From Nanobdellota archaeon (GTDB taxonomy: Archaea > Nanobdellota > Nanobdellia > Pacearchaeales > GW2011-AR1), in NCBI GenBank assembly GCA_020053375.1, contig JAGVNG010000017.1, forward strand, positions 26,780 through 90,779: a stretch of 64,000 nt of DNA. Reading direction: 5' to 3'. This document shows positions 6,486 through 25,479 of the stretch, piece by piece. A program made the translations under genes and the position numbers. Positions within the stretch are counted from its first letter, which is position 1; each line of letters begins with the position of its first letter. The notes beneath the pieces are model-generated. The model did no database searches, had not been told where the DNA came from, and saw only the letters and a program-made list of their open reading frames with translations.

Positions 6486-6722
6486 TTGAAAGCTAAACAC
6501 TTTCCTGCCCAAAAAATGCACATACTCCAGCCAAAACATTCTAAGTTAAACGAAAAAGAGACTAAAGAAGTATTACTAAACTTTAACGTTTCCAAGTCAC
6601 AGCTTCCAAAAATATACTCTACAGACCCTGCTCTGTCCGAGGGATGCATTAGTGGAGACATAATAAAAATAGAAAGAAAAGAAGGAGAAAAGACCTATGT
6701 TTACTATAGGGTTGTAATATAA
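6486..6722 (+). CDS. rpoH: DNA-directed RNA polymerase subunit H (Rpo5); probable true start at 6516
   Basis: C-terminal ...SQLPKIYSTDPAL...GDIIKIERK...YYRVV matches the RpoH/RPB5 C-domain; directly upstream of rpoB. Confidence 0.8.
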   Translation: MKAKHFPAQKMHILQPKHSKLNEKETKEVLLNFNVSKSQLPKIYSTDPALSEGCISGDIIKIERKEGEKTYVYYRVVI

Positions 6723-6763
6723 TTAATATGAAAATTTCAAGTTTCCAAGGAAGTAACTAAACA

Positions 6764-9700
6764 ATGGAAAAAGGACACAAGCATCTTGTTATGAAGAAAT
6801 ATCTCGAAGAGCATTCGCTGGTAGAGTCAAATGTCATTTCTTTCAACAATTTTATTGAAACAAGAATGCAGAAAATCGTCGAGGAAATAGCAGAAACCAT
6901 AAACAACGAGGACTTTGAAATCAAGCTCGGAAAAATAACCATAGGAAAGCCAAAAATAACAGAAGCTGACGGAAGCTCTTCTTTGATAACGCCAACCGAA
7001 GCAAGATTGAGGAGCCTTACATATGCCGCTCCTGTTTACCTTGAAATCAGCGTGAAGAAGGATGACCAGGTTGATTCAGAGACAGTTGAAATTGGGAAGA
7101 TTCCTGTTATGGTGAAAAGCAAGATATGCAATACTCACGAGATGTCAAAAGATGAATTGATTAAAAATTACAATGACCCTCTTGACCCGGGCGGATATTT
7201 TATAATAAAAGGAAATGAAAGGGTGATGGTAATGGCAGAGGACCTTGCCGAAAATCAGTCTTTTGTGGAAACGGACTCAAGGGGCAATTTGATTCTCAAA
7301 ATGTTTTCTCTTAAGGGAACATACAGGATTCCCGTTACAATATTTGAGGACAAGGAAGGCTTGTTCAATCTTTCTTTCAGTCGGTTCAAGGACTTGCCAG
7401 TAGTTGTTATACTCAAGGCGCTCGGACTTACAAAAGAATCAGACATTGCAAAATACATAGGAAAGGAAACGGACAGTGTCGTTGTTAACCTTTATGAATT
7501 TGTCAACATAGCTGAGAAGGAAGATGCCATGATTTACATTGCAGAGAAAACAAATCTTCAAGGAACAAAAAAAGAAATTCTTGACCGGGTCAAGCAAAGG
7601 ATTGACTCCTATCTTTTCCCCCATATTGGCCAGAAAAAGGAAGACAGGATGAAAAAAGCAATAACACTCTGCAAATTAATAAAGCAATTTTTGACTGCAA
7701 AGGAAAATCCCCAATTAAGAACAGACAAGGATCATTATGCAAATAAAAGGGTTAGACTATCAGGTGACCTTTTAGCAACTTTGTTTAGGGTTAATCTTGG
7801 AATTCTTATCAGGGATATACAATATTCCCTTCAGAAATCATCAAAGAGAAGGAAATTCTTTTCAATAAAAATAATAGCAAAATCAACCCTATTCTCGCAC
7901 AGGATTGAATCTGCAATAGCGACGGGAAGCTGGACAGGAGAAAGAAGCGGAATAACCCAAAATATGGACAAGACAAATTATCTTGCAATAATTTCCCAGC
8001 TTCAGAGAGTATCAAGCATGCTTCCTAGCGATCAGGAAAACTTCATGGCAAGAACTCTTCACCCAACACATTATGGAAGATTCTGTCCGATAGAGACGCC
8101 TGAAGGAACAGAAATTGGGCTTAGGAAAAATCTTGCAATTCTCAGCCAGGTGTCAACCAGAATAAATCTCGACGAGGAAAAATTCCTGAAAGACATGGAA
8201 TCAATGGGGCTGGACAAGGAAGGAATAGAGGGAAGAGAGGTATTCTTTAACGGAATATTCATGGGAAGCGTAAAAAATCATATTGATTTTGTGAAAAAAA
8301 TGAGGGAAATGCGAAGAGAGGGAAAACTGCCTTATGCATTAAACATAAGGGATGATGAAAACTTTCAAAATGTTCTTGTTTCAACAGAGCCAGGAAGAGT
8401 ATTGAGGCCTGTCATCATAGTTGAAAATGGGATATCCAAGTTAAAAATAGAGCATCTTGTGCAGCTTGAACAGGGAGAGCTTAAGTGGGACAACCTTATT
8501 GAAAAAGGAATAATAGAATACTTGGATGCAGCAGAAGAGGAAAATTGCCTTGTTGCGATGCATGAGGAAGGAATTACTTCTGAGCACACTCATCTTGAGA
8601 TAGATGCAACAGATGTGTTCGGAGTTGTCACAAGCCTTGTTCCATACGGGAATCATGACCAAAGCTCCAGATTGAACAGGGGAAGCAAGACGCAAAAACA
8701 GGCATTAGGATTATATGCTGCAAACTATTTAACAAGACTCGATACAGATGTAAGCATTCTTCAGTATCCGCAGAAGCCGATTGTAAGAAGCTTTGTATAT
8801 GACACTCTTAATATTTATCCGGCAGGACAAAACCTTACCGTCGCGATAATGACGTACGAGGGATACAATATGGAAGATGCTTTGGTATTCAACAAGGGAA
8901 GCCTTGACAGGGGAGTTGGAAGAAGCTTTTACTTCAGGCCTTATTCAGCTGTTGAAATGAATTATGCCGGTGGCTTGAAAGATGAGATTGCAATACCTGA
9001 AAAAGACGCATCTGGATACAAGACAGAAGCAAACTATAGATTCCTTGAGTCAGACGGAATAATTTATCCAGAAGCAGATGTCGGCGAGGGAGAAGTTTTG
9101 ATTGGAAAGATGTCCCCCCCAAAATTCCTCTCAGAGGCAAGGGAAATCTCCATCAGAACAAAGAAAGAGTCAAGCATTGAGATGAGGCAGGAAGAAAAAG
9201 GAACCGTTGACGCTGTTTTCGTGGCAGAGGATTCAGAGGGCAACAAGATAGTTCATGTGAAAACAAGGGACCAAAGAATTCCTGAGATAGGAGACAAATT
9301 TGCAACCTCGCACGGACAGAAGGGGGTAATAGGAGCAATAATTCCGGAGGAAGATGTTCCTTTCACCTCAAGAGGCATAAGACCTGACGTCATGTTCAAT
9401 CCGCACGGACTTCCAAGCAGAATGACTGTTGGATATTTGCTTGAACTTCTCGCAGGAAAAACTGGAGCTGCCAAAGGAGAAATAATGGATGGAACTTCCT
9501 TCTCGGGGGAAAGCAAGAAGGATTTGGAAGCGCAGCTTGCGGAATTAGGATTTAGATCTGATGGAAAAGAAACGATGTATAATGGAGTAAGCGGAAAGAG
9601 AATGGAAGTCAAGATTTTCGTTGGAAACTTATATTACCTAAAATTGAAGTATATGGTAAGCAACAAAATACACGGAAGAGCGGCAGGAAAGATTGCCTTG

Positions 9701-10021
9701 CTTACACGACAGCCTATAGAGGGAAGGTCACGAGGAGGAGCATTGAGGCTTGGAGAAATGGAGCAGCAAGCGCTTGTAGCGCATGGAGCATCTCTTCTTC
9801 TTAAGGAAAGATATGATTCTGACAAAGTAGTGCTTCACATATGCACAAAGTGCGGGACAATTGCAATAGAAGACAACATACGAAACAGGATATCTTGCCC
9901 AATATGCAACAGCGAAGAAGTTGAACCAGTAGAGGTATCATATGCATTCAAGCTTCTGCTTGAGGAATTGCAGGGACTTCATATTCACACATCACTTAAA
10001 TTGAAGAATAAGTACGAATAA
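6764..10021 (+). CDS. rpoB: DNA-directed RNA polymerase subunit B (unsplit B'/B'')
   Basis: 1085 aa with RNAP second-largest-subunit blocks (GDKFATSHGQKGV, C-terminal CxxC...CxxC zinc ribbon). Confidence 0.95.
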   Translation: MEKGHKHLVMKKYLEEHSLVESNVISFNNFIETRMQKIVEEIAETINNEDFEIKLGKITIGKPKITEADGSSSLITPTEARLRSLTYAAPVYLEISVKKDDQVDSETVEIGKIPVMVKSKICNTHEMSKDELIKNYNDPLDPGGYFIIKGNERVMVMAEDLAENQSFVETDSRGNLILKMFSLKGTYRIPVTIFEDKEGLFNLSFSRFKDLPVVVILKALGLTKESDIAKYIGKETDSVVVNLYEFVNIAEKEDAMIYIAEKTNLQGTKKEILDRVKQRIDSYLFPHIGQKKEDRMKKAITLCKLIKQFLTAKENPQLRTDKDHYANKRVRLSGDLLATLFRVNLGILIRDIQYSLQKSSKRRKFFSIKIIAKSTLFSHRIESAIATGSWTGERSGITQNMDKTNYLAIISQLQRVSSMLPSDQENFMARTLHPTHYGRFCPIETPEGTEIGLRKNLAILSQVSTRINLDEEKFLKDMESMGLDKEGIEGREVFFNGIFMGSVKNHIDFVKKMREMRREGKLPYALNIRDDENFQNVLVSTEPGRVLRPVIIVENGISKLKIEHLVQLEQGELKWDNLIEKGIIEYLDAAEEENCLVAMHEEGITSEHTHLEIDATDVFGVVTSLVPYGNHDQSSRLNRGSKTQKQALGLYAANYLTRLDTDVSILQYPQKPIVRSFVYDTLNIYPAGQNLTVAIMTYEGYNMEDALVFNKGSLDRGVGRSFYFRPYSAVEMNYAGGLKDEIAIPEKDASGYKTEANYRFLESDGIIYPEADVGEGEVLIGKMSPPKFLSEAREISIRTKKESSIEMRQEEKGTVDAVFVAEDSEGNKIVHVKTRDQRIPEIGDKFATSHGQKGVIGAIIPEEDVPFTSRGIRPDVMFNPHGLPSRMTVGYLLELLAGKTGAAKGEIMDGTSFSGESKKDLEAQLAELGFRSDGKETMYNGVSGKRMEVKIFVGNLYYLKLKYMVSNKIHGRAAGKIALLTRQPIEGRSRGGALRLGEMEQQALVAHGASLLLKERYDSDKVVLHICTKCGTIAIEDNIRNRISCPICNSEEVEPVEVSYAFKLLLEELQGLHIHTSLKLKNKYE

Positions 10022-10022
10022 G

Positions 10023-10298
10023 ATGACAGAAGCATACCCCATAATCTTGGAAGCTGGAAATGAAAAAACTTATGAAGAGGTAACTGTGTTCCTTAGAGGC
10101 TTAACTGAAAAGTCTAAGCAGATGGATGGAAAAAAATATTACTTTTTAGATGGTTATACAGTACCTCCAATCAGAACAGACAAGGGTAAAAAGACAATAG
10201 AGCTAACTTTAAGTGTTGATTCAGAAATAATAAGTTTAATCAAACATACTTTAAACATAAAAAATAATAGGGATATCACCAATATATTCAAAAGTTAA
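10023..10298 (+). CDS. Hypothetical 91-aa protein encoded between rpoB and rpoA
   Basis: ATG 2 nt after the rpoB stop and 12 nt before the rpoA start; no recognisable motif. Confidence 0.45.
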   Translation: MTEAYPIILEAGNEKTYEEVTVFLRGLTEKSKQMDGKKYYFLDGYTVPPIRTDKGKKTIELTLSVDSEIISLIKHTLNIKNNRDITNIFKS

Positions 10299-10310: not shown

Positions 10311-13300
10311 ATGAGAACAAAACCAATAAGAAAAAAAATAGGAGAAATAGGATTTGCATTGTTCAATCCGGAGCAAATCAAGAGAATTTCGGTAGCTAAG
10401 ATAGTAACTCCTGAGCTTTATGATATAGACGGATATCCTGTAGACGGAGGACTTATGGACTTAAGGCTTGGAGCAATAGACCCTGGAGTAAGATGCAGAA
10501 CATGCGGAGGAAGGCTGAAGGAGTGCCTCGGACATCTTGGAAGCATTGATTTAGCAAGGGCAGTCATGCATATAAAATATATCCCCTTAATGGAGCTTGG
10601 ATTGAGATGCTTCTGCTATGAATGCAAGAAATTATTGGTTGATGACAAAGACCTTTACAAATTGCCTGCAAGCCAGAGAGCAAAGAAAGCAAAGGATGCA
10701 AAGAAATGCCCTCACTGCGGCTCACCGCATGAAAAAATCAAGCTCGACAAGCCAACCAACTTTTACAGAGGAAAGACAAGAATATTCCCAACTGAAATAA
10801 GGGAAATGCTGGCCGCAATATCCGACGAGGAACTGGTGAAAGTAGGAGTCAATCCAAAGACTGCAAGACCAGAATGGGCTGTGCTTACAGTTTTCCTTGT
10901 TCCACCAGTCACAATAAGACCAAGCATCATACTTGAAACAGGAGAGAGAAGCGAGGACGATTTGACGCACAAACTTTCTGATATAATTAGAGCAAACCAA
11001 AGACTATGGGAAAATCTTAACGCAGGTGCTCCTGAAGTTATAATAGAAGACTTGTGGGATCTTCTTCAATTCCACATCACAACATTCTTTGACAACACCG
11101 TTGCAAGAATTCCTCCTGCAAGGCACAGAAGCGGACAGCCTCTGAAAACAATAACGGAGAGAATAAAAGGAAAGGAAGGAAGAATAAGAAAGAATCTTGC
11201 CGGAAAGAGAGTCAATTATTCAGGAAGAACGGTTGTTTCTCCCGACCCATCAATAGACATAAATGAAGTTGGAATACCTTTTGAAATAGCTAGAGTAGTA
11301 ACAGTCGCTGAAACCGTAAATGATCTTAACATAGAACATCTGAAAAAAATTGTTGAAAAAGGCGGAGAGTATCCCGGAGCGAATTATGTAATAAGGCCTG
11401 ATGGAAAAAGAAAAAAGATAACACCTGAGTTGAAAGAAGAGATAATAAATGAGATAGTTCCAGGCTACATAATCGAAAGGCATCTTCAGAACGGCGACAT
11501 TGTCCTGTTCAACAGACATCCAAGCCTTCACAGGGGAAGCCTGATGGCTCATTATGTAAAGGTGCTTCCTGGAAGGACGTTCAGGCTGCATCCTGCCGTT
11601 GCGTTCCCTTATAATGCCGACTTCGATGGAGACGAGATGAATATACACTCTCCACAGACAGAAGAAGCAAAGGCGGAAACAAGAGTTCTTCTTGATGTAA
11701 AGAGAAATCTCATTTCTCCAAAAAACAATACCAATCTTATAGGTTGTGTGACAGACTCCATAACTGGAAATTATCTGCTGGGACTTGGTGAGTTTTCAAA
11801 AGAATATGCAAATCAATTGTTATATAGAACAGGAATAGATTACCAATTTTCAAAAAAGATGGTGCTTGGTACAGAAATATTTTCAAAGATACTTCCAAAG
11901 ATAGACTTTTCAAATGATGTGATAAAGATAAAGGATGGGGAAGTCATAAGGGGAATAATTGACAAGACAACTTTTGGAGTTGAGGATGGGGAACTTGTAA
12001 AAGAAATAGATAGGGTAAAGGGGAGAAATGTGGCATTTGAAAGCATTCAGAAGGCATTTAATCTTGGAAAAAACTTCTTGACTGACAAAGGAATATCTCT
12101 TTCTCTGAATGATTTGGATTTGGAAGACAATATAATAAAGATGGCCGACGAAATAATAGAAAAGGCGGAAAAGAGAACAGTTGAAATAATAGGGGAATAC
12201 AATAAAAGAACTCTTGAAATAATTCCTGGGAAGACATTGGAGCAGTCACGAGAAATAAGAATCCTTAAGGTTCTGAACGAGATAAGAACAAAGATAGGAG
12301 AAATAGTCAAGAAAGAATTTCCAAAGGATAATCCAGTTACACATATGATTAACTCTGGGGGCGGAGGAAACATATTGAACATAACACAAATGGCATGCTG
12401 TGTCGGACAGCAGGACCTTGAGGGAAAGAGAATAGACATTGGATATTCAAACAGGACATTGTCATTTTTCAAAAAAGGAGATTTGTCGCCAAGGTCAAAG
12501 GGATTCATAAGAACTCCTTACATAAGGGGATTGAAGCCTGATGAATTTTTCTTCGGTGCAATGACAGGAAGAGCGACGCTGATGGATACTGCGTTAAGAA
12601 CTCCTAAATCCGGTTATCTTTATAGAAGACTTGCAAATGCATTGCAGGACTTGCGAGTTGAATACGGTGGAACAGTAAGGGACAGCAACAACAACATAAT
12701 CCAGTTCAAGTACGGAGATGACGGAAAGGACGTAATAAAGAAGCATACTGACGGAGACATAGAACCTGGAGAGGCAATAGGGATAGTAACCGCACAATCA
12801 TTCGGAGAACCTTCAACGCAAATGGTATTGAGAACATTCCACTTCGCTGGAGTTACCGAGATGCAGGTTACACAGGGACTTCCAAGGCTTATAGAAATAT
12901 TTGACACAAGAAAGAAGCCAACCTCGCCAAAGATGGAGATATACTTCAAGAAGGAATTCAACAATGAAAAGGATGCAAGGACTTTTGCAGAAAAAATAAA
13001 AGAAGTCAACATAGAAGAAATTGCATCAGAAATAAATCTTAATTTCAGCGACAAGAAAATAGAAATAACTCTTGACAAGGAAGCATTAAGACACACGCAT
13101 ACTTCTGTCAAGAAAGTTGCTGAAAGATTGAACAAAATAGGATTTAAGGTCAAGGAAAAAGAAGATGGAATAACTCTGAATGCAGGAGACATGAACTTCA
13201 AGGAAATCTACAAGCTGAAGGAGAAGCTGAAAAAGACAATGATATCCGGGGTGAAGGATGTCAAACAGGTCATAATAGTAAAGAGAGACGCCAATTTTGT

Positions 13301-13802
13301 CATAATTACCCTTGGTTCAAATCTTGAGAAGATTCTTGAATTCAAAGAGATAAATCCCGAGAAATTAATTTCAAATGACCTTTATGAAATGCAAGAAGTT
13401 TTCGGAATAGAAGCTGCAAGGCAGCTGATAATAAATGAGATATATGAAGTATTGAATACCCAGGGACTTGACATAGACATGAGGCACCTTAAACTAGTTG
13501 CGGATGCCATGACAAACACTGGAGGCGTCAAGGGAGTTACCAGAATGGGAATAATTGCGCAGAAGTCATCCATACTTGCAAGAGCAACATTCGAGACACC
13601 TGTAAAACAGTTTGTGAATGCAACTGTGAAGGGAAGCAGAGATAAATTGACAAGCGTCATAGAAAATATAATTCTTAATCAGCCTGTGCCAATAGGAACT
13701 GGGCTTCCAGGGCTTCTTGTGAAGGTTATAGGTTCTTTGACAAAGGATGAATCGGAGAAAAAGGAAGCCAAGAAGAAGGTAGTAGAAGCTGTGGCGGATT
13801 AA
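10311..13802 (+). CDS. rpoA: DNA-directed RNA polymerase subunit A, A'/A'' fused in one 1163-aa polypeptide
   Basis: Zinc-binding N-terminus, NADFDGDEMN catalytic motif near aa 440, and the A''-type GEPSTQMVLRTFHFAGV block near aa 830, all in one ORF. Confidence 0.9.
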   Translation: MRTKPIRKKIGEIGFALFNPEQIKRISVAKIVTPELYDIDGYPVDGGLMDLRLGAIDPGVRCRTCGGRLKECLGHLGSIDLARAVMHIKYIPLMELGLRCFCYECKKLLVDDKDLYKLPASQRAKKAKDAKKCPHCGSPHEKIKLDKPTNFYRGKTRIFPTEIREMLAAISDEELVKVGVNPKTARPEWAVLTVFLVPPVTIRPSIILETGERSEDDLTHKLSDIIRANQRLWENLNAGAPEVIIEDLWDLLQFHITTFFDNTVARIPPARHRSGQPLKTITERIKGKEGRIRKNLAGKRVNYSGRTVVSPDPSIDINEVGIPFEIARVVTVAETVNDLNIEHLKKIVEKGGEYPGANYVIRPDGKRKKITPELKEEIINEIVPGYIIERHLQNGDIVLFNRHPSLHRGSLMAHYVKVLPGRTFRLHPAVAFPYNADFDGDEMNIHSPQTEEAKAETRVLLDVKRNLISPKNNTNLIGCVTDSITGNYLLGLGEFSKEYANQLLYRTGIDYQFSKKMVLGTEIFSKILPKIDFSNDVIKIKDGEVIRGIIDKTTFGVEDGELVKEIDRVKGRNVAFESIQKAFNLGKNFLTDKGISLSLNDLDLEDNIIKMADEIIEKAEKRTVEIIGEYNKRTLEIIPGKTLEQSREIRILKVLNEIRTKIGEIVKKEFPKDNPVTHMINSGGGGNILNITQMACCVGQQDLEGKRIDIGYSNRTLSFFKKGDLSPRSKGFIRTPYIRGLKPDEFFFGAMTGRATLMDTALRTPKSGYLYRRLANALQDLRVEYGGTVRDSNNNIIQFKYGDDGKDVIKKHTDGDIEPGEAIGIVTAQSFGEPSTQMVLRTFHFAGVTEMQVTQGLPRLIEIFDTRKKPTSPKMEIYFKKEFNNEKDARTFAEKIKEVNIEEIASEINLNFSDKKIEITLDKEALRHTHTSVKKVAERLNKIGFKVKEKEDGITLNAGDMNFKEIYKLKEKLKKTMISGVKDVKQVIIVKRDANFVIITLGSNLEKILEFKEINPEKLISNDLYEMQEVFGIEAARQLIINEIYEVLNTQGLDIDMRHLKLVADAMTNTGGVKGVTRMGIIAQKSSILARATFETPVKQFVNATVKGSRDKLTSVIENIILNQPVPIGTGLPGLLVKVIGSLTKDESEKKEAKKKVVEAVAD

Positions 13803-13933
13803 AGAGAGGAATTGATAATTTAATTAAAAAGAAGTGACGATAAATATAAATAGGAGTATTACTTATGATTATTGTTGGCTTTGGTTGGGTGGCAATCGGT
13901 CACTCACTGAGGAAACCCAACTTCCCAACGCTA

Positions 13934-14671
13934 TTATTTCTTTGAATAAAAATAAATTGATTGAACCTCTTTTTTGTTATTTTGAGTCAAAACCCGATGT
14001 TCTTTTGATAAAATTATCTTCCATCCCGTATCTAAAGTTTCTTTTGCCCATTGTACAGATTTTTGCCCACGATTTGCCTTAACCCAATATGAACAAGTAC
14101 AAATAATTAAATCAGATATTTGAAGCATTTCAGATTGAGACATTTCAATATTTATTATTTTTTCAATTAAATTATTATTTGTAACATATTCTGTTCCTTT
14201 TTCATAAAATGTTTTAAACCAACTAGATACTTCTCCCCAGTTATTCATAGTATCAGAAAAGAGAATTCCAAGTTCTTTCTTATTATTCTGTCTTGAAATA
14301 TCTTCTGTGTTTAAGCAAATTCTTTCAAATAAACATTCATAAGCAAATTGAATTTTATTTCTAATTTTTGGAGAATCATCTTTATCAACTTTGCATATGC
14401 AAATTCTTATTGGTTGGGTTTCAATAAATTTGTAAAAGTCATTTAAGAATTCTTTTCTTTTTTCTATTGAAACATTTGAAAACCATCTTTTTCCCTGCAT
14501 AATCATCTTCATATCAATTTTTCTTGTTGAAGTTTCAAAGTGTTTATTTAATATATTTTTAAATTCTTTAATCATATTTTCATAGTTTCCATCATGAATA
14601 GAATAACTACCAACTACTAAATCTCTTTCTTCTTTTGTTATTCCACTTTCATCAATATACCATAAAATCAT
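13934..14671 (-). CDS. DUF3800-like protein
   Basis: N-terminal MILWYIDESG characteristic of DUF3800 family members; 245 aa; opposite strand inside the otherwise co-directional RNAP/ribosomal cluster. Confidence 0.45.
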   Translation of the reverse strand: MILWYIDESGITKEERDLVVGSYSIHDGNYENMIKEFKNILNKHFETSTRKIDMKMIMQGKRWFSNVSIEKRKEFLNDFYKFIETQPIRICICKVDKDDSPKIRNKIQFAYECLFERICLNTEDISRQNNKKELGILFSDTMNNWGEVSSWFKTFYEKGTEYVTNNNLIEKIINIEMSQSEMLQISDLIICTCSYWVKANRGQKSVQWAKETLDTGWKIILSKEHRVLTQNNKKEVQSIYFYSKK

Positions 14672-14733
14672 AACTAAGTAAAGATGAATTAATATATAAA
14701 TTATTATAATTTACAATAGTTTAAATTAACTAA

Positions 14734-14743
14734 CATTTATAAA
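14734..14743 (+). promoter_or_regulatory. TATA-box-like element upstream of nusA
   Basis: tttataaaat ~33 nt upstream of the ATG. Confidence 0.2.
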
Positions 14744-16883: not shown

Positions 16884-17501
16884 ATGACAGACGAAGATAA
16901 AAAACCAATGGAATTCAAGATATTTGACATGTATGATGTAAGCGAGATTAAGATAGAGGACCCTGGACTAAGAGCGGTCATAAACTTACAGCCAAAGCTC
17001 ATTTTAAAAAGCCAGGGAAGAAATGTAGTGAAGCATGGGCAGACAAAAGTCAATATTGTTGAAAGGCTTATGAATAGGCTCGGAGTTGCAGGACACAGGG
17101 GAAAGAAGCATAAGATAATAATGGGAAGAAGCACGGGAAAATATTCAAAAAATATGGGAATAATTCTTGAAGCGCTAAAAATTGTCGAGGAAAAAACAAA
17201 GAAGAATCCAATAGCCGTTCTTGTCAAAGCAATAGAAAATTCAGCCCCAAGGGATGAAATTACTGTTATAGAGTATGGTGGAGCAAGATATCCTCAGGCA
17301 GTTGATGTTTCTCCAATAAGAAGGGTTAATCTTGCGCTAAGAAACCTTGTTCACGGGGCTGGTGATAGAGCATTCGGAAAAAAGAAGACAATTGTTCAGG
17401 GGCTTTCGGAAGAAATAATTCTTGCCTTCGAGGGAAACGGGGAAAGCTTGGCAATAAAGAAGAGAAATGAAGCAGAGAAACAAGCAGACTCAGCACGATA
17501 A
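16884..17501 (+). CDS. rps7: 30S ribosomal protein S7 (uS7)
   Basis: NPIAVLVKAIENSAPRDEITVIEYGGARYPQAVDVSPIRRVNLALRNL matches the uS7 signature region. Confidence 0.9.
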   Translation: MTDEDKKPMEFKIFDMYDVSEIKIEDPGLRAVINLQPKLILKSQGRNVVKHGQTKVNIVERLMNRLGVAGHRGKKHKIIMGRSTGKYSKNMGIILEALKIVEEKTKKNPIAVLVKAIENSAPRDEITVIEYGGARYPQAVDVSPIRRVNLALRNLVHGAGDRAFGKKKTIVQGLSEEIILAFEGNGESLAIKKRNEAEKQADSAR

Positions 17502-17518
17502 TTAAATTAATTTTATAA

Positions 17519-17764
17519 TTAAGAATACTCTTCTATTTCTTTCCTTATATCATTCAATTTTCTTGGATTCAAGCTAATATGGATTTCTCCCGTGCTCATT
17601 TTTGAAATTAAATAGCCTTCTTTAATCAAATTTTTTATCTCTTCTTTAACCTCTTTTAGAAGTTGAGGAGGAAAACTTTTCATAGCATTTCTGATTTCAG
17701 TATGCCTTCCGCCAATATATCTATGCCTGAAAAGTTTCTTTAGAATAGCTTTCCTGATAGACAT
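17519..17764 (-). CDS. Hypothetical small protein, possible winged-helix
   Basis: 81-aa ORF, basic N-terminus. Confidence 0.35.
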   Translation of the reverse strand: MSIRKAILKKLFRHRYIGGRHTEIRNAMKSFPPQLLKEVKEEIKNLIKEGYLISKMSTGEIHISLNPRKLNDIRKEIEEYS

Positions 17765-17878: not shown

Positions 17879-18223
17879 ATGGAAAAATCATCCTTTACAT
17901 TGGTGTTTGGAGAGTCACCCTTCGTGAAAGTATTGGATTTTTTTCTTACATTTGAAGATTTTGATTACCCACTTTCATTCATAGCTAAGGAAACCGAAAC
18001 AAAATGGGAAACAGTCGGAAAGGTAGTTGAATTGCTCATTAAAAGGGGACTTATAAAAAAAACACGAAAATTGGGAAAGTCCTGGCTTTATGGACTTAAT
18101 AAAGAAAGCATGTTGACAAAATTATTAATAGATATAGACATAAAAGTTTCTGATTTTTACATAAACGAAGAACTTAAAAGACAAAAGATTGGCTTTGTTA
18201 AGCAAGCCAACAACATGCGTTAA
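17879..18223 (+). CDS. Winged-helix DNA-binding protein
   Basis: ...ETKWETVGKVVELLIKRGLIKKTRKLGKSWLYGL... recognition-helix/wing pattern. Confidence 0.45.
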   Translation: MEKSSFTLVFGESPFVKVLDFFLTFEDFDYPLSFIAKETETKWETVGKVVELLIKRGLIKKTRKLGKSWLYGLNKESMLTKLLIDIDIKVSDFYINEELKRQKIGFVKQANNMR

Positions 18224-18234: not shown

Positions 18235-18462
18235 TTATTTAGAATGATGCACAAATGATTCTTCAGGGATGTCTGGCAAATTCAATAGTTTGGAAATACA
18301 TTCTAAGCTGGTCTTTGATTCACCATGAAGAGCGATTTCATCCACATTCGCCTTATCCTTAGGGATAGCTATTCTATTTGTTTTAACAAAAACTCCGTTA
18401 ATTAAATAATCTACACTTTTTTCACCCATCCCAACTGCATTCTCACCATAATTTTTAAGCAA
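18235..18462 (-). CDS. Small protein with possible AbrB/MazE-type swapped-hairpin motif
   Basis: GVFVKTNRIAIPKDKANVDEIALHGE resembles the AbrB-type ...tIPke...gd.v motif; no adjacent toxin gene. Confidence 0.3.
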   Translation of the reverse strand: MLKNYGENAVGMGEKSVDYLINGVFVKTNRIAIPKDKANVDEIALHGESKTSLECISKLLNLPDIPEESFVHHSK

Positions 18463-18969: not shown

Positions 18970-19326
18970 TTGGAATTCTTCTTGAAAATTATCAGGAGCT
19001 TAGGAAAAAATCAGACATTAGTCGATAAAAAGGTTTTTAATGAGAATTGTATTAAACCTTTTATGAAAAGAATATTTAAGAGCAAACTTCTCTCAACATT
19101 TATATTTTCACTTATAGCTTCCGTATTGCTTATAATTCACGGACTTTTTTTTGATTTGGACTTATCCCAAATACAAAGGCTTACAATAGAGGGATTTATA
19201 GTAACTTTTGTCCTAACCTTCACTGCATTAGTCATTTTTGAAAGAATATTTAGCCTTGAAGAACATGAGGAAATAATAAAGATAAAGACAAGATTAGGCA
19301 AATTAGAAGGGAAAAGACACAGGTAA
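18970..19326 (+). CDS. Hypothetical membrane protein
   Basis: Two predicted hydrophobic helices. Confidence 0.4.
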   Translation: MEFFLKIIRSLGKNQTLVDKKVFNENCIKPFMKRIFKSKLLSTFIFSLIASVLLIIHGLFFDLDLSQIQRLTIEGFIVTFVLTFTALVIFERIFSLEEHEEIIKIKTRLGKLEGKRHR

Positions 19327-19459
19327 AACTTTAAAAATAAACTTTTTCTTCATTTATGATGACTGGCTGGAACTAAAGATTCTGCTAAGTCATTTTAATA
19401 AATTAAAATGGCAGACAAAGAAAACAGGAAATTTTCAAGTTTCCAATAAAACACTGAAA

Positions 19460-21646
19460 ATGGAAAAAGAAACACAATTTGACAAGATAAGAAGAATCAG
19501 CGCGGACCAGAAGCATATTCGCAATATTGCAACATCCGCGCACATTCATCACGGAAAAACCGCATTGACAGACAATCTCCTTGCTGCATCAGGACATATG
19601 GCCGCAAAATCTGCAGGAGACTTGGATGCAGGAATGGCAACATGGCAGCACTTGGACGAGCAGGAAAGGCTGATGACAGTTGACGCTGCAAATGTCTCAA
19701 TGGTTCACGATTTCCACGGAAAAGAATATCTGATTAATCTAATTGACACGCCAGGACACGTTGACTTCAGCGGAAATGTAACGAGAGCAATGAGAGCGAT
19801 AGACGGAACAATTGTGCTTGTATGCGCTGTCGAGGGAATAATGCCCCAGACAGAAACAGTGATAAAACAAGCATTGAGGGAAAGAGTCAAGCCTATTTTA
19901 TTCATAAACAAAGTTGACAGATTAATCAAGGAGCTTAAACTCACCCCCGAGAAAATGCAGGAGAGATTTGTAAGGATTTTTGAGGAGTTTAACGAACTTG
20001 TCAGCAAGATTGCAGACGGAGAATTCAAGGAAAAATGGCTTGTGGACATAAACGACGGAAGCGTTGCATTCGGCTCTGCAAGGGAAAACTGGGCATTGTC
20101 TGTTCCTTTTATGAAGAAGAAGGGGATAACTTTCAAGGATATATTCACTCTTTATGAAATGGGAGAAAAAGAAAAAAAAGAATGGTGCTGGAAAAACGCC
20201 CCATTGTATGAAGTTCTTCTTGACATGGCTGTAAAGCATCTTCCAGACCCTCTTGAAGCGCAGAAATACAGAATCCCAAAGATATGGCACGGAGATCATG
20301 ACAGCGAATTCGGAAAAAATCTTAGCAACTGCGATCCAAAGGGAAAAATTGCATTTGTAATCACGAGAATTGTCATTGACCCAAGAAGCGGAAAGGAAAT
20401 TTCTGCAGGAAGATTATTCTCGGGAACATTAAGAGTAGGGCAGGATGTTTATCTAAATCTTGCAAAACAAAAACAGAAAATCCAGCAGCTTTTCATCTAC
20501 AATGGCATAAAGCCAGAACAGGTTGATGAAATCGGGTCGGGCAATGTCCTTGCAATAGCCGGAGTAAATGGAGAAGCAGGAGAAACTGTTACAGCAGAAC
20601 CAGAAACACCCTTCGAGGAATTAAAGCATATATTTGAGCCTGTAATAACAAAAGCAATTGAAGTCAAGAAAATGGCAGACCTTCCAAAACTCATTGAAAT
20701 ACTCAGGAAGGTATCAAAAGAAGACCCTTCGGTTAAGGTAACAATAAATGAAGAAACAGGAGAAAGCCTTATTTCCGGAATGGGAGAACTGCATCTTGAA
20801 ATCATAGAAAACAGAATAGTTACTGAAAAAGGGCTGGAGGTAAAAACTTCTTCTCCAATAGTTGTTTATCGGGAAACAGTTGACAAAGAATCTCCAGAGC
20901 TCGAGGGAAGAAGCCCTAACAAGCACAACAGCTTTTACATGAAGGTGGAGCCTCTTGAAACACCTGTATATGATGCAATAAAAAACGGAGACATCCCAGA
21001 GGGAAGAGTCAAAAAGAAGAACAAAGAATTATTTGACAAATTTTCAGAGTTTGGATGGGATGGAGACACCATCAGAAGCATAAAGGATATCTACAAGGGA
21101 AATATTTTCCTTGACCAGACAAGAGGAGAAGTCAGAATTAATGAAATAATTGAAATGGTAGTGGATGCTTTTGAAATGGTCATAGACGCAGGGCCTTTGG
21201 CAAGAGAGCCATGCACACGAATGAAAGTTTCATTGATGGATACAAGAATTCACGAAGACCCTATTCATCGAGGGCCTGCGCAAGTTTATCCTGCAGTAAG
21301 GGAAGCAATAAAAGAATGCATGAAGAAAGCGGGAGCAGGGCTTTTGGAGCCTATTCAGATTCACATAATAGAAATTCCGGACACATTCCTTGGAACAATA
21401 ACAAAGCTTATAGGGGGCAAGAGGGGACAGATGCTTGAAGTAAAGCAGGAGGACACGGGCGTGGAAGTAAAAGCAAAGCTTCCTGTCGCGGAAATGATTG
21501 GATGGAGCAATGATTTGCGTTCCGCAACAGAAGGAAGAGGAAACTCGTCGCTGTCTGACCAGCTGTTTGAAAAGGTTCCTAAAAACTTGCAGGCAGATAT
21601 CATAAAACAAATAAGACAACGAAAGGGACTTGCAGAGAACCAATAG
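19460..21646 (+). CDS. fusA: Elongation factor 2 (aEF-2)
   Basis: GTPase G1 AHIHHGKTALTD, DTPGHVDF, and diphthamide-region HEDPIHRGPAQVYP; 728 aa. Confidence 0.9.
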   Translation: MEKETQFDKIRRISADQKHIRNIATSAHIHHGKTALTDNLLAASGHMAAKSAGDLDAGMATWQHLDEQERLMTVDAANVSMVHDFHGKEYLINLIDTPGHVDFSGNVTRAMRAIDGTIVLVCAVEGIMPQTETVIKQALRERVKPILFINKVDRLIKELKLTPEKMQERFVRIFEEFNELVSKIADGEFKEKWLVDINDGSVAFGSARENWALSVPFMKKKGITFKDIFTLYEMGEKEKKEWCWKNAPLYEVLLDMAVKHLPDPLEAQKYRIPKIWHGDHDSEFGKNLSNCDPKGKIAFVITRIVIDPRSGKEISAGRLFSGTLRVGQDVYLNLAKQKQKIQQLFIYNGIKPEQVDEIGSGNVLAIAGVNGEAGETVTAEPETPFEELKHIFEPVITKAIEVKKMADLPKLIEILRKVSKEDPSVKVTINEETGESLISGMGELHLEIIENRIVTEKGLEVKTSSPIVVYRETVDKESPELEGRSPNKHNSFYMKVEPLETPVYDAIKNGDIPEGRVKKKNKELFDKFSEFGWDGDTIRSIKDIYKGNIFLDQTRGEVRINEIIEMVVDAFEMVIDAGPLAREPCTRMKVSLMDTRIHEDPIHRGPAQVYPAVREAIKECMKKAGAGLLEPIQIHIIEIPDTFLGTITKLIGGKRGQMLEVKQEDTGVEVKAKLPVAEMIGWSNDLRSATEGRGNSSLSDQLFEKVPKNLQADIIKQIRQRKGLAENQ

Positions 21647-21676: not shown

Positions 21677-21952
21677 ATGAAAGAAAAAAAATATTTTTTG
21701 GATGTTGTAATCAACAAAGAGAAACTTAGCGATGGAAAGGATGTATTTGTGGTTGTATGTCCAAGTCTTGATGTCGCAAGCCAGGGGATGAATGTTGAAG
21801 AAGCCATGAAAAACATAAGAGAAGCTGTTGAACTTTACCTTGAAGAAATGCCTGAGGCTTATGAAGAACTTGATATTACAAGAAAGGAAATACCCACATT
21901 TTCTTTTATTGAGGTAAAAAAACATGGCAAAGTTGCCAATATTGTCAGGTAG
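21677..21952 (+). CDS. hicB: HicB-like antitoxin
   Basis: VVCPSLDVASQGMNVEEAMKNIREAVELYLEE matches the HicB/UPF0150 core; overlaps hicA by 29 nt. Confidence 0.7.
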   Translation: MKEKKYFLDVVINKEKLSDGKDVFVVVCPSLDVASQGMNVEEAMKNIREAVELYLEEMPEAYEELDITRKEIPTFSFIEVKKHGKVANIVR

Positions 21953-22151
21953 AGACCTTGCAAAGATTCTTTCCCGATTAGATTATGTGCATATCAGAAC
22001 ACATGGAAGTCATATGATTCTTGTTAAACAAACTGAAAAGGGAAAGAAGACAATTCCTGTTCCAAATCATAAAGAACTTGCTAAAGGAACGCTAAAGGCG
22101 ATAATGAACCAAGTGGGTTTAAAATTAGATGATTTATTAAACCTGTTATAA
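21924..22151 (+). CDS. hicA: HicA mRNA-interferase toxin
   Basis: ...SRLDYVHIRTHGSHMILV...IPVPNHKELAKGTLKAIMNQVGL matches the HicA consensus. Confidence 0.8.
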   Translation: MAKLPILSGRDLAKILSRLDYVHIRTHGSHMILVKQTEKGKKTIPVPNHKELAKGTLKAIMNQVGLKLDDLLNLL

Positions 22152-22255: not shown

Positions 22256-22501
22256 TTGTACACTTTAAGCGGAAAAAAAGAGTTTCGAAAAATATTTCCT
22301 GAAGTTTTCTTTGATACTCGTGATTATTTTCCTGTCTCAGAACAAATAGAGTATGCTTTTAATAGCCTAATGTTGGCGGGACAGCTGGAAGAATATGGGC
22401 TAAAGAAGGCTTTTTATTATGTAACTGACGGTGCAGTAAGATATTATAATAGAATATTGCATAGTCAATTAGGGAAAGATTTTGAGAAGCTGTTAAACTA
22501 A
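22256..22501 (+). CDS. Hypothetical protein
   Basis: 81-aa ORF. Confidence 0.35.
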   Translation: MYTLSGKKEFRKIFPEVFFDTRDYFPVSEQIEYAFNSLMLAGQLEEYGLKKAFYYVTDGAVRYYNRILHSQLGKDFEKLLN

Positions 22502-23197
22502 ATCTATTACTTTGATTCTTTCAGAAAATGCCTCTCTTAATATTTCTTGGGTGCTGTTATAATTCACCTGTATTGAAAGCCTGTGATTGTCATAACCGGT
22601 GCTTGGGTGAGCTGTGAATGAGAAATCATCAAGACCTCCCTCATTTTTTCTTTGTCCAGTAAAACTTCTATCAAATAATATTGATTCAAGCTTACCCTCT
22701 CCATTTGGCTTATTAAAACTTCTGTGATTTACGAAAGGATGGACAGTTCCAAATTCTATTCCCATCCCAAGAGAATCAAGAAATTCTTTTCTTGCCTTTG
22801 TTATTCTGTTATCATCAATTATCTCTTTGTCATTTATGCCAAGATATCTTCCTAAAGCCAGTCTTATGTCATTAGAATGTTTTGTTCCAGGAATAAAAAG
22901 TCCGTACACTTTTTGTGTTTTAGCATCTTCAAAATAAACACCTTTAATTACTCTTTCAAGGGGCAATCCTGTTAAATCCGCTTTCTCCTGACATGTGCTC
23001 GTTTTTTCAGAGTGTGTTGCAATATGAAAATGAATTCCTCTCTTAAGAGAAATATCTAAGATATAATCCAGCTCAAAATCCTTTAAAAAATCATTCCTAA
23101 ATTCCTGTTCTCTCCAGTCCTGATAACGATAGTCCGGCTCATCAGGCTCCACACAGCTAACAATTCCCTCGCAGTGTATTAATTTGCCTTTTTGCAT
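22493..23197 (-). CDS. YbaK/ProX-like aminoacyl-tRNA deacylase domain protein (tentative)
   Basis: HSEKTSTCQEKADLTGLPLERVIKGVYFEDAKTQKVYGLFIPGTKHSNDIRLALGRYLG resembles the YbaK editing-domain core. Confidence 0.35.
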   Translation of the reverse strand: MQKGKLIHCEGIVSCVEPDEPDYRYQDWREQEFRNDFLKDFELDYILDISLKRGIHFHIATHSEKTSTCQEKADLTGLPLERVIKGVYFEDAKTQKVYGLFIPGTKHSNDIRLALGRYLGINDKEIIDDNRITKARKEFLDSLGMGIEFGTVHPFVNHRSFNKPNGEGKLESILFDRSFTGQRKNEGGLDDFSFTAHPSTGYDNHRLSIQVNYNSTQEILREAFSERIKVIDLV

Positions 23198-23400: not shown

Positions 23401-24684
23401 ATGGCAAGAGAAAAACCAAATATGAACATCGTGTTCGTCGGGCACGTTGACGCTGGAAAGTCAACCATAATCGGAAGATTGCTTTTCGACACTGGCGCTG
23501 TTTCTGAAATGGAAATGAAGAAGTTGAGAGAGGAAGCGGAAAAGCACGGAAAAGTCGGATTCGAATTTGCATACGTAATGGACAAGATTAAAGAGGAAAG
23601 AGAAAGAGGGGTTACAATTGATCTTTCTTACAGAAAGGTAATGACATCAAAATATCAGGTGACAATAATCGACGCGCCTGGGCACAGAGACTTTGTAAAA
23701 AACATGATAACTGGGGCTTCACAGGCTGATGCAGCCTTTTTGGTTATCGCTGCGCAATCTGGAGTTCAACCACAAACAAAGGAACACCTATGGCTATTAA
23801 GGACAATGGGAGTAAGAAATGTTTGTGTTGCCATCAATAAGATGGACGAAATAAAATACGATGAGGCAAAATTCAACAAAGTTAAAGAAGATGTTTCTAT
23901 TCTTTTGAAAACAGTCGGATTAAAACTTGAGAATATTACATTCATTGCGTGCTCTGGATTAAAGGGAGATAATGTTGCTAAAAAAAGCACAACTATGTCA
24001 TGGTACAAGGGACCAACAATATTGGAGCAGTTTGACTTGTTCCCTCAGCCAGAACTGCCTACAAATCTTCCATTGAGAATGCCTGTGCAAGATGTTTATG
24101 AAATAACCGGTATCGGGACAGTCCCTGTAGGAAAGATTGAGACAGGAACAATGAAGCCCGGACTAAAAATAAAAATACTTCCTGGAAGAACAGGAGACGG
24201 TGTTGATGGTGAAATTAAAACGATAGAAATGCATCATGAAGCGCTTCCCGAGGCAAGGGCAGGAGATAATGTTGGATTGAACATAAGAGGAATTGGAAAG
24301 AAGGACATCGCAAGGGGAGATGTGATTTGCGACGCTGCATTCCCTGTTCCTGTTGTAAAAGAATTTATCGCACAGATAGCTGTAATTGACCACCCTACTG
24401 TTTTGGCCAAGGGATACACCCCCGTATTCCACATTCACACAGCGCAGGTTCCTTGCCAGTTTATTGAATTAATAGAGCAGATAGATTCAAAGACAGGACA
24501 AGTCATAAAGAAAAACCCTGATTTCTTGAGAAACGGGGATGTTGCAAAGGTAAGGATAAAGCCGCAGGGAAATCTCTGCCTTGAAACACAGAAGGACAAC
24601 CCGCATATGTCAGGATTTGCAGTAAGAGATGCAGGACAAACAGTTGCAGCAGGAATCTGCATTGAAATAACACAGAAGAAGTAA
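23401..24684 (+). CDS. tuf: Elongation factor 1-alpha (aEF-1alpha)
   Basis: [32 protein letters not shown] motifs; 427 aa. Confidence 0.95.
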
Positions 24685-24685
24685 G
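24643..24685. repeat. Direct repeat copy 1: last 43 nt of tuf including stop codon
   Basis: Matches 25437..25479 at 42/43 positions. Confidence 0.9.
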
Positions 24686-24696: not shown

Positions 24697-24775
24697 ATTC
24701 TTAGATTTTTGGATATTTTTAATAACTAACTGTAAAAATAGAAAAGCTTAAATATGTGTAAACACATAAATATTT

Positions 24776-25009
24776 ATGGCAAATATAACATTGTCTGTTC
24801 CGGAAGAATTAATGAAAAAAATGAAATTGTTCAGGGAAATAAGATGGAGTGAGGTAGCTAGACGCTCAATAGAGGAAAGAATTGCTGATTTAGAAACCAT
24901 GAACAAAATCGCTTCTAAGAGCAAGTTGACGAAAGAAGATGTTGAAGAGATTGGGAAAAGGATAAAAAGCAGAATGACTAAAACATTCTATGAACACGAT
25001 AGCAATTGA
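24776..25009 (+). CDS. vapB: VapB-like antitoxin (ribbon-helix-helix/CopG-like)
   Basis: 77 aa, MANITLSVPEELMKKMK...WSEVARRSIEERI pattern; overlaps PIN gene by 20 nt. Confidence 0.55.
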   Translation: MANITLSVPEELMKKMKLFREIRWSEVARRSIEERIADLETMNKIASKSKLTKEDVEEIGKRIKSRMTKTFYEHDSN

Positions 25010-25415
25010 TACAAACGTCATAATTTCTGCTCTTCTTAAGGAAGGAATAACAAGAAAGATATTATTAGATTACAAATTCAATTTCATATTCCCTGAATAT
25101 GGTTTAAAAGAAATTTATTTTTATAGAGACTATGTAATAAAGAAATCTGGAATAAAAGATTCTGAATTTGATGTGTTAATGTTAAGATTATTTAAATATG
25201 TAAAATTAGTTCCTCTGCATATTATTAAAAAATTTAGAAAACGTGCAGATGAAATAATGAAAAAAATAGATAAGAAAGATACGGTATTTATTGCAACATC
25301 TCTAGCTTTTAAATGTCCAATTTGGTCTGATGACAGACATTTCAAATTACGAAAAGAAATTAAAGTATATAATACCCAAGAATTCATAAATCTTATGCTC
25401 GATAAGCCAAGATAA
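24990..25415 (+). CDS. vapC: VapC PIN-domain toxin
   Basis: IAIDTNVIISAL (first acidic residue), later FIATSL and WSDDRHF acidic positions of a PIN domain. Confidence 0.75.
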   Translation: MNTIAIDTNVIISALLKEGITRKILLDYKFNFIFPEYGLKEIYFYRDYVIKKSGIKDSEFDVLMLRLFKYVKLVPLHIIKKFRKRADEIMKKIDKKDTVFIATSLAFKCPIWSDDRHFKLRKEIKVYNTQEFINLMLDKPR

Positions 25416-25436
25416 AAATTATTACCATCTATAAAT

Positions 25437-25479
25437 GTTGCAGCAGGAATCTGCATTGAAATAACGCAGAAGAAGTAAG
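25437..25479. repeat. Direct repeat copy 2 of the tuf 3' terminus
   Basis: gttgcagcaggaatctgcattgaaataacGcagaagaagtaag; single A->G difference (24672 vs 25466) is synonymous in the tuf frame. Confidence 0.9.

Follow-up and report, generated by a model that had tools for sequence, protein, structure and literature searches.

Turnover of short genes at the junctions of the conserved rpo/str cluster in a DPANN archaeon

Few archaeal gene arrangements are as conserved as the rpo/str cluster, which serves as an anchor for synteny and phylogeny. How, then, can small genes lie at nearly every one of its junctions? The question is raised by a stretch of DNA from a Nanobdellota archaeon (contig JAGVNG010000017.1, assembly GCA_020053375.1; hereafter the window, meaning all 64,000 nucleotides, nt), in which the cluster was examined at positions 6486–25479 and its junctions hold about 17 extra open reading frames (ORFs), with 6283 nt of noncore DNA. 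What we found is a well-resolved flux of accessory genes within a conserved backbone, a variant of known genome plasticity, observed in gene content, in turnover between genomes, in direct repeats, and in a contrast of synonymous divergence (dS). We consider it probable that the core backbone is fixed and that the slots at its junctions gain, replace, and lose short cassettes far faster than the core genes diverge.

Core genes were assigned by Pfam scans. A sequence-only reading of this DNA had recognized the canonical order in an interrupted state, and all eight core genes were confirmed on the + strand: rpoH (Rpo5; 6486–6722, probable start ATG 6516; RNA_pol_Rpb5_C, E 7e-19), an unsplit rpoB of 1085 amino acids (aa) (6764–10021; Rpb2 domains 1–7), an unsplit rpoA combining A' and A'' in a single ORF of 1163 aa (10311–13802; Rpb1 domains 1–5), the gene of an archaeal NusA-like protein of 138 aa with two KH domains (14776–15192; weak Pfam KH matches), rps12 (15792–16214; E 1.6e-38), rps7 (16884–17501; E 1e-34), and the genes of EF-2 (EF2, 19460–21646) and EF-1alpha (EF1a, 23401–24684). 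A query with S12 gave 80 loci from species-representative genomes, all of them metagenome-assembled genomes (MAGs) of Woesearchaeota, Pacearchaeota, or "Nanoarchaeota" (labeled L001 upward); the organism is a DPANN archaeon of the Woesearchaeota/Pacearchaeota type. A thaumarchaeal origin, initially considered in view of the unsplit rpoA and the low GC content, was rejected on these matches. The order rpoH-rpoB-rpoA-nusA-S12-S7-EF2-EF1a was the same in the relatives. In tblastn searches among the 80, core genes were matched in 41–80 (RpoH in 41, NusA in 63), and each small junction ORF in 0–5. The next conserved gene 3' of EF1a in the lineage is o186 (26846–27406, +), which encodes a helical, TPR-like protein and has a homolog after EF1a in 18 of 25 relatives, at a distance of 66–1615 nt.

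The turnover was followed slot by slot in a close relative. A homolog of o91, the ORF between rpoB and rpoA, led to the Hainich groundwater contigs L081–L084; L085, of the same sample, was reached with a degenerate pattern for the C-terminus of EF1a. The last 55 nt of L081 are the first 55 nt of L001 (55/55) and locus-tag prefixes are shared; L081, L001, and L085 appear to be pieces of one genome that cover most of the cluster. Amino acid identity to this relative was 94–98% for RpoB, RpoA, S12, EF2, and EF1a (96% for RpoB against L081 and for EF2 against L085) and 86–92% for RpoH, NusA, and S7 (NusA 90% against L081), and core dS was about 0.8–0.95. At 96–97% core identity, 7 of 9 junctions differed in content. 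Between rpoB and rpoA the window has o91 alone, whereas the relative has an o91 paralog, an o91 ortholog, and an unrelated 90-aa ORF. The nusA–S12 slot holds o150 in the window and an unrelated 115-aa ORF in the relative. Between S12 and S7 the window has o79 and o125, of which the relative is without o125; the EF2–EF1a slot contains hicAB, o81, and a YbaK-like gene in the window and is without hicAB and o81 in the relative. EF1a is followed by vapBC in the window and by a NYN gene in the relative. Upstream of rpoH, finally, the window has only a tRNA-Lys gene, and the relative has a toxin–antitoxin (TA)-like pair and an inverted tRNA-Lys with an insert.

Some of these exchanges have exact borders. 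The alignment to L081 stops exactly at the nusA stop codon and restarts at the conserved upstream region of S12; in between lies o150 (15233–15685, +), an AT-rich cassette ORF of 150 aa with no family match and a third-position GC content (GC3) of 0.20. Window positions 16520–16880 are absent from L001 as a precise indel that removes o125 (16519–16878, +; listed start 16501, likely ATG 16519), a Janus/Ocnus (PHPT1-like) gene (PF05005, 29.3 bits against a cut-off of 23, E 9e-7) with a GC3 of 0.14, no sequence match in the PDB, and an end 5 nt ahead of rps7. Its neighbor o79 (16278–16517, +) encodes a small acidic protein with a homolog in L001 only (59% aa identity; ratio of nonsynonymous to synonymous divergence, dN/dS, 0.28). 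The two ORFs described earlier between rps12 and rps7 are there. The 150-aa ORF described as replacing L30e actually stands between nusA and S12; the L30e slot is filled by a DUF3800 cassette.

Across the lineage, noncore DNA within the cluster amounted to about 1–8 kb in 24 relatives, among which the 6.3 kb of the window ranked fourth, and the rest of the window is similarly dense in small AT-rich ORFs; the earlier view that the interrupted operon is unusual was therefore not borne out. Junction gaps in the relatives ranged from about 0 to 5.8 kb (S7–EF2 12–5687 nt, nusA–S12 42–3189 nt, EF2–EF1a up to 5788 nt), and many relatives had gaps below 100 nt with no ORF inside. The 353 junction ORFs, those of the window included, fell into 301 BLAST clusters (266 singletons). 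Most of those with at least 75 aa (80% of 258) were on the cluster strand, and in the S12–S7 gaps, a junction spanned in 77 relatives, 43 of 44 such ORFs were on the + strand. The bulk of the relatives' junction ORFs had no Pfam match. Matches included families of TA or defense systems (MazE, ParE, Zeta, Fic, NYN, Xre/MbcA, nucleotidyltransferase (NTase), SIR2, and PD-(D/E)XK), winged helix-turn-helix (wHTH) regulators, and housekeeping proteins (pyruvate kinase, CTP synthase, BacA, and PurS). PADLOC and NCBIfam scans of the family-less small ORFs gave no meaningful match. Small ORFs shared between genomes had dN/dS values of 0.07–0.30 and are under purifying selection. The view that most junction ORFs are accessory insertions rather than ancient parts of the operon is supported.

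The DUF3800 cassette (13803–14757, −), which consists of the gene, a 3' element, and a promoter region, fills the rpoA–nusA slot. The gene (13934–14671, −) lies on the opposite strand after rpoA, as had been noticed before, and encodes a 245-aa protein of a family with an RNase H-like fold (PF12686, 36.9 bits against a cut-off of 21). Its translation carries YIDESG (N-terminal DE) and QISD (C-terminal QxxD), the DE and QxxD motifs described for DUF3800 (PMC7736814). The cassette was 96–97% identical to L081 in nucleotides and the flanking rpoA and nusA about 85–88%, with sharp edges. The dS of the gene was 0.18, five-fold below the 0.88 and 0.92 of its flanks, and its dN/dS was 0.075. Because of the low dS relative to the flanks, the sharp edges, and this dN/dS, we read it as a functional gene that was probably transferred recently. 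Homologs with 54–87% identity occurred in six unrelated contexts, one of them inside a type I restriction-modification locus.

A conserved structured element of 58 nt (13874–13931, −) directly follows the DUF3800 stop codon, on the same strand. It was nearly invariant in 10 loci (the window, L081, L086, L088, L090, L092, L095, L096, and L097 among them), while the proteins encoded beside it share 54–87% identity, and its two nested helices were kept by compensatory changes in the most divergent copies. Double changes were found in 5 of 12 pairs, and the covariation score was 0.31 against 0.10 after shuffling, with only 8 distinct sequences. A covariance model found the element once beside each DUF3800 gene (10/10 loci) and nowhere else in 1.23 Mb. 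Rfam, including DUF3800-I to -XI, gave no match at E ≤ 1 over 5800–28000 or at E ≤ 10 over 13790–13960, and no exact match was found on viral contigs. The element is probably a further DUF3800-associated RNA motif. Structured RNAs associated with DUF3800 genes have been named DUF3800-I to -XI (Weinberg et al. 2017, PMC5737381), DUF3800 has also been described as an RNase H-like domain in type VII retrons and in one sub-branch of Cas12a2 (PMC7736814, PMC10910872), and DUF3800 proteins associate with many unrelated structured RNAs in a role that is unknown (PMC5737381, PMC7736814, PMC10910872). Like those systems (PMC5737381), the window has a stand-alone DUF3800 gene with DE and QxxD motifs and a tightly linked conserved structured element. 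Unlike DUF3800-I to -XI, the element is outside the Rfam families and directly follows the stop codon on the strand of the gene; and unlike the described systems, gene and element appear to behave as a mobile cassette in DPANN archaea. The unit would be an archaeal, mobile example of this protein–RNA partnership. It is one of two features that we consider worth following, the other being the scars that gene 3' ends have left around TA cassettes.

Such a scar is seen at EF1a, where direct repeats of 43 nt bracket vapBC. The left copy (24643–24685, +) covers the final 39 nt of EF1a together with its stop codon and the base that follows, and the right copy (25437–25479, +) has one synonymous mismatch to it. 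Between them lie the palindrome ATGTGTAAACACAT (24754–24767), a vapB-like ORF of 77 aa (24776–25009, +) without a Pfam or PADLOC match, whose N-terminus looks ribbon-helix-helix-like by eye only, and vapC, a PIN_2 toxin gene (24990–25415, +; PF10130, 87 bits) that overlaps it by 20 nt. A 29-nt remnant of a NYN 5' end (25407–25435, −; FIDGNNFYL) overlaps the vapC stop and adjoins the right repeat. In L085 the same repeat pair (46 nt, 5–6 mismatches) brackets an intact NYN gene. The right copy of the window, together with its flank, agrees with the functional EF1a end of L085, and it is the left, functional copy that deviates; this suggests that the DNA that came in had an EF1a 3' end of its own. 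The small ORF and PIN_2 gene proposed as vapBC are thus present after EF1a, while the variable zone reaches beyond the end given for it, to 26845, with o136m (hydrophobic) and o241m (weak methyltransferase matches) as further variable genes ahead of o186 (25506–26669, −). An intact NYN gene, whose leader is conserved and contains a hairpin, is found at 30377–30972, 5.7 kb downstream of EF1a; in L085 (4585–5180) the same gene stands directly after EF1a between the repeats, so that it has changed position between the genomes.

Repeats of gene 3' ends were not limited to EF1a. At 57584–57612 and 58840–58868, 29 nt (25 exact) from the 3' end of ORF 56898–57614, stop included, flank a HEPN gene paired with a wHTH-NTase gene (57635–58718). 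In L068, another pair of HEPN and wHTH-NTase genes lies between two copies of 43 nt from the 3' end of rpoA, and in L014 a spacer of 77 nt separates two copies of 52 nt from the 3' end of nusA. All these repeats (EF1a, ORF 56898–57614, L085, L068, and L014) end at the stop codon. Apart from those of EF1a and ORF 56898–57614, the window has no long direct repeats by the criteria used.

Integrative elements insert in the 3' end of a gene, classically a tRNA gene, restore it with a copy that they bear themselves, and leave attL and attR repeats. The scars resemble this in two respects: their repeats of 29–52 nt are identical to the very end of the target gene, stop codon included, the functional copy differing from the displaced one, and one site, the EF1a end, holds different cargo in two genomes. 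They differ in that they lie at protein-coding genes, namely EF1a, rpoA, nusA, and an unnamed ORF, and in that the scar units, of 0.6–1.2 kb, have a TA-type module alone and no integrase gene. The cassettes also recall those of integrons, being short units with few promoters or a single gene, often of TA type, that are stacked in the same direction at a given site and exchanged among relatives. Unlike in integrons, they are spread over many junctions rather than gathered in one array; no shared cassette-end sequence or inverted repeat was seen at their boundaries, nor were attC-like ends, an attI site, or an IntI-like gene. A tentative proposal, to which we give a low probability, is that TA-type and defense-type modules in these DPANN archaea (VapBC, NYN, and HEPN-NTase) may travel as mini-cassettes without an integrase, which would integrate within the final 30–50 nt of a host gene and supply a new end for it. 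If true, even EF1a, rpoA, and nusA would serve as attachment sites, and the process would be a trans-acting cassette exchange distinct from integrons and full-size integrative elements. The recurrent scars suggest a route by which TA modules could enter essential loci without harm.

In the EF2–EF1a slot, a pair of hicAB genes and two further ORFs had been proposed, and all four are present. The hicB gene (21677–21952, +) scores just below the Pfam cut-off (PF15919, HicB_lk, 26.1 bits against 27, N-terminal part only), and hicA (21924–22151, +) well above it (PF07927, 61.4 bits against 27), overlapping hicB by 29 nt. The pair is missing from L085, L099, and L100, and HicB-like genes follow EF2 in L045, L048, L059, and L067. 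The window's HicA and PIN_2 genes, each paired with a small overlapping upstream ORF, agree with type II TA systems of the HicAB and VapBC kinds. As in known VapBC, a palindrome precedes vapB; unlike them, the vapB-like ORF is without a family match and the 3' end of vapC is fused to a NYN remnant. Compared with known HicAB, this predicted TA pair has a marginal HicB score. Next to hicA, o81 (22256–22501, +; TTG start) had no matches and is missing from L085.

The remaining gene of this slot had been counted among the invaders, and here the evidence points the other way. It lies upstream of EF1a (22493–23197, −) and encodes a protein of 234 aa with 29 homologs, all within the lineage; in L085, L099, and L100 it has the same opposite-strand slot (49–62% identity). 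Since the gene was kept in one slot in four genomes, it is not an invader. An AlphaFold2 model (mean confidence, pLDDT, 92) matched 1wdv, ProX, and YbaK with a Foldseek probability of 1.0, and target-normalized TM-scores to 1wdv, 8huz, 1dbu, and 2z0k were 0.66–0.75. The sequence profile match was weak (1wdv, E 0.012), and the family alignment has invariant Lys, His, and Cys columns. We predict with high confidence a YbaK/ProX-like aminoacyl-tRNA editing domain. Relative to the allele of L085 its dN was 0.41, far above the flanks.

The S7–EF2 slot is a mosaic of two modules. The first is the divergent pair o81m (17519–17764, −; dN/dS 0.07) and o114 (17879–18223, +), found in the same slot in L001, L042, and L048 with 73–91% aa identity. 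The o114 family, of about 600 representative clusters, encodes small proteins of DNA-binding type whose homologs match wHTH Pfam families; o81m was judged wHTH-like from inspection of its sequence alone. Nucleotide identity of the pair was 78–86% against 67–76% for S7, which would be suggestive of recent horizontal transfer; strong constraint explains it equally well, and we do not propose a transfer. The second module, o115 (from 18568, likely start 18649, +) and o118 (18970–19326, +; a probable membrane protein, being hydrophobic in hydropathy plots), recurs in the same slot in L002 only, with 59–66% identity. Between the modules lies o75m (18235–18462, −), a doubtful ORF with a TTG start, no family match, and no homolog in any locus. 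Five small genes had been described here, among them wHTH and AbrB-like ones. The number is right and the wHTH assignment holds for o114 through its homologs, but the AbrB-like candidate, o75m, does not bear that name out.

The third long-lived occupant is o91 (10023–10298, +), a 91-aa ORF wedged between rpoB and rpoA, as first described; it starts 1 nt past the rpoB stop and ends 12 nt ahead of the rpoA ATG. Its family comprises 16 proteins, located only between rpoB and rpoA wherever context was available, and the o91 and o90 families recur in this slot among the relatives. The predicted structure is a confident model of a small alpha+beta protein, for which no informative structural neighbor was found. 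That o91 and o90 are lineage-specific accessory proteins of RNA polymerase is a second idea, independent of the gene-end scars and likewise held with low confidence. Near rpoB an 18-nt motif, AAAWTTTCAAGTTTCCAA, was also noticed: near-identical copies at 6731–6748 and 19429–19446 lie about 15–30 nt upstream of the rpoB and EF2 starts, their similarity extends over about 66 nt, and the motif also occurs upstream of rpoB in L081. As a lineage-wide regulatory element it was rejected, being confined to the window and the close relative, with none in more distant relatives.

The proposal that the cluster was invaded by insertion therefore stands in part. For it speak the rarity of the ORFs in relatives, the differences from the close relative, the EF1a repeat, and the low dS of DUF3800, and only a minority (o81m/o114, the YbaK-like gene, and the o91 family) proved to be conserved in relatives. 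We propose that each junction would be a slot for short accessory cassettes, usually of one or two small genes. Long-lived residents, which probably have a function where they lie, would be the YbaK-like protein, the o81m/o114 pair, and the o91 family; recent arrivals would be vapBC, hicAB, the PHPT1-like o125, and the DUF3800 gene together with its RNA element. At least part of the traffic may rely on recombination where the upstream gene ends, with incoming DNA bringing the last 30–50 nt including the stop, so that the essential gene would stay intact and the displaced end be left as a direct repeat. Candidate routes are integrase-type recombination, homologous recombination of the Campbell type, or a cassette mechanism of another kind. 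The same-strand inserts o91, o79, o125, and hicAB lie 1–63 nt from core genes; because they abut these genes and leave S7 and rpoA without room for promoters, we infer that they would ride on core-gene transcripts. S12, EF2, and EF1a would keep their own promoters downstream of the cassettes. The conserved upstream regions of S12 and EF1a share a box resembling the B recognition element and TATA box, promoter-like AAACTTTATAAACC at 15752 ahead of S12 and AAAGTTTATAAACC at 23292 ahead of EF1a. Inserts may persist because their deletion would endanger essential neighbors and, for TA pairs, also through addiction.

Several observations weigh against this reading. The relatives are all metagenome assemblies, and exact repeats of 55 nt with a spacing of 155 nt in L003 and L019 look like assembly artifacts. 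The order of events at EF1a cannot be cleanly reconstructed, the right copy of the window being less decayed than its L085 counterpart. No integrase or recombinase gene adjoins any scar, the cargo being only vapBC, NYN, or HEPN-NTase genes; a scan that took in part of the window's ORFs likewise found no integrase family among the proteins. Most junction changes (o150 against the 115-aa ORF, o125, hicAB, and o113/o90) have no repeats and are uninformative on mechanism: microhomology or target-site duplications sought at the o125, o150, hicAB, and o113/o90 boundaries amounted to A-rich or TAAAATG-type junctions, which are not diagnostic. Co-transcription and promoter placement are read off the sequence. 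Moreover, the comparison with the genome elsewhere covers the other 45 kb of one window.

Could the cluster, as an essential and highly expressed operon, be a preferred landing pad specifically for TA modules that exploit its indispensability? Two TA pairs lie within 19 kb, HicB-like genes directly follow EF2 in four other relatives, the relatives' junctions carry the TA and defense families listed above from MazE to SIR2, and the repeat-flanked cargoes are all of TA type (PIN, NYN, and HEPN-NTase). However, among the window's inserts, about 17 in number, no more than 2 are recognizable TA pairs, and most junction ORFs of the relatives are family-less, while several others are housekeeping genes. 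In the rest of the window, genes with a GC content of about 0.36–0.42 are interleaved with small ORFs at about 0.25–0.32, the same mosaic as in the cluster, and these 45 kb hold a NYN gene, the HEPN-NTase pair with the same kind of scar, an IS240-type transposase, and many small AT-rich ORFs, so that no enrichment in the cluster was demonstrated. We saw no evidence that inserts are drawn to the cluster more than to other parts of the genome; it stands out as not being protected. The similar litter outside it therefore argues for a flexible backbone throughout the lineage and not for a special landing pad, which we regard as unlikely. DPANN genomes are rich in short "dark matter" genes, and TA-type domains (MNT-HEPN) occur in housekeeping contexts (Makarova, Wolf and Koonin 2019, PMC6393860). 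The window resembles the islets of that study in its short, lineage-restricted, mostly unannotated proteins among core genes; that study gave genome-wide statistics and conserved families, and here turnover was resolved slot by slot in one conserved cluster, with scars and dS.

Less probable still is that the small ORFs are ancient, fast-evolving components of the cluster, for instance lineage-specific accessory proteins of RNA polymerase or translation whose conservation is masked by divergence. The residents fit such an origin: the YbaK-like gene and the o81m/o114 pair each hold one slot in four genomes, o81m is better conserved than S7, and o91 and o90 recur between rpoB and rpoA; so do the 43 of 44 S12–S7 ORFs on the + strand and the dN/dS values below 0.3. 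But presence and absence vary among genomes with 96% identical RpoB, many gaps in relatives are shorter than 100 nt and have no ORF, occupants of the same slot are unrelated in sequence and length, and DUF3800 homologs lie in unrelated contexts, with a cassette dS five-fold under the flanks. Spurious ORFs in expanded AT-rich spacers or a chimeric metagenome assembly, to which the TTG starts of the family-less o75m, o81, o115, and o118 in a mechanical ORF list and the 55-nt repeats of some relatives might point, are largely refuted as an explanation by the same architecture in independent assemblies (Hainich L081–L085; NCBI and JGI contigs L099 and L100), the purifying selection on shared small ORFs, the scores of HicA, PIN_2, DUF3800, and Ocnus above Pfam cut-offs, and an EF1a repeat that has a mismatch and a diverged counterpart in another assembly.

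The canonical str/L30e cluster runs rpoH-rpoB-rpoA1-rpoA2-L30e-nusA-S12-S7-fusA-EF1a-S10 (PMC10833476), and the window shares the order and orientation of its remaining core genes. It differs in its unsplit rpoA, in the absence of L30e and S10 from the cluster, in the TPR-like gene after EF1a, and in the variable genes at nearly every junction. A hypothetical ORF also lies between rpoB and rpoA1 in the DPANN archaeon AR10; AR10 has a split rpoA, L30e, S10, and one hypothetical ORF overall, unlike the window (PMC10833476). The rpoA gene is split in Euryarchaeota, Crenarchaeota, and Nanoarchaeum, and an unsplit form was reported for Thaumarchaeota only (PMC4084955); in all relatives whose locus covers the whole gene, the rpoA match spans 1132–1185 aa as a single gene. 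Neither a validated Thermococcus L30e query nor a validated Pyrococcus uS10 query found a match in the 64-kb window; L30e was also absent from the cluster in the sampled relatives, and S10 from the 80 relative loci. Two candidates were rejected: a weak tblastn match to S10 at the window start (130–207) is antisense to a P-type ATPase, and a supposed L30e in L078 is actually L7Ae, as a motif in the translation tells.

The median rpoA–nusA gap in the relatives is 86 nt and therefore leaves no room for L30e; in the window this slot holds the DUF3800 cassette. Since L30e and S10 are absent across the relatives, their absence is a trait of the lineage and not a result of local insertions. The statement that both genes are missing was thus right for the window, whereas it does not single out this genome, and the relocation through invasion drawn from it does not follow, the absences being lineage-wide and the TPR-like gene following EF1a. 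L30e is a dispensable archaeal ribosomal protein (bioRxiv 10.1101/2021.01.31.429008), and it may have been lost rather than relocated. For annotation, L30e and S10 missing beside these genes should not be taken as a sign of MAG incompleteness in this lineage. In a large DPANN lineage the gene order is thus preserved, but rpoA is unsplit, the cluster is without L30e and S10, and each junction is a variable slot. Since the anchors are fixed, the dS of the flanks can serve to date when genes of reduced genomes were gained, lost, or replaced.

Beyond EF1a, the backbone continues with o186, a 391-aa ORF (29198–30373), and an SMC-like ORF of 953 aa (35378–38239), with variable genes between them. 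The 391-aa ORF occupies the position of a Toprim/DnaG-like gene in L099 and L100; both it and the SMC-like ORF were named from position and N-terminal sequence only. At 33320–35359 the + strand has six small ORFs in a row (75–195 aa), all family-less, the last two paralog-like by their N-termini, and the IS240-type DDE transposase gene lies at 38839–39735 (PF13610, E 4e-19).

On the other side, the tRNA-Lys(UUU) gene (6227–6301, −; ARAGORN; Rfam tRNA, 74 bits) lies between thioredoxin and rpoH. In L081 (4738–4859) it lies on the opposite strand and has 43 nt inserted in it that are probably an intron, whereas the window copy is uninterrupted. L081 also has, at 4927–5481 upstream of rpoH, a pair of 87-aa and 96-aa ORFs that is not in the window, the second a RelE/ParE-type toxin by eye. 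Further upstream, the window (1822–6223) encodes an NrdR-like protein, a class II ribonucleotide reductase, a dUTPase, and thioredoxin. In the corresponding part of L081 (1–4696) the reductase is 22% identical, a dCMP deaminase fusion takes the place of the dUTPase, and thioredoxin is 90% identical.

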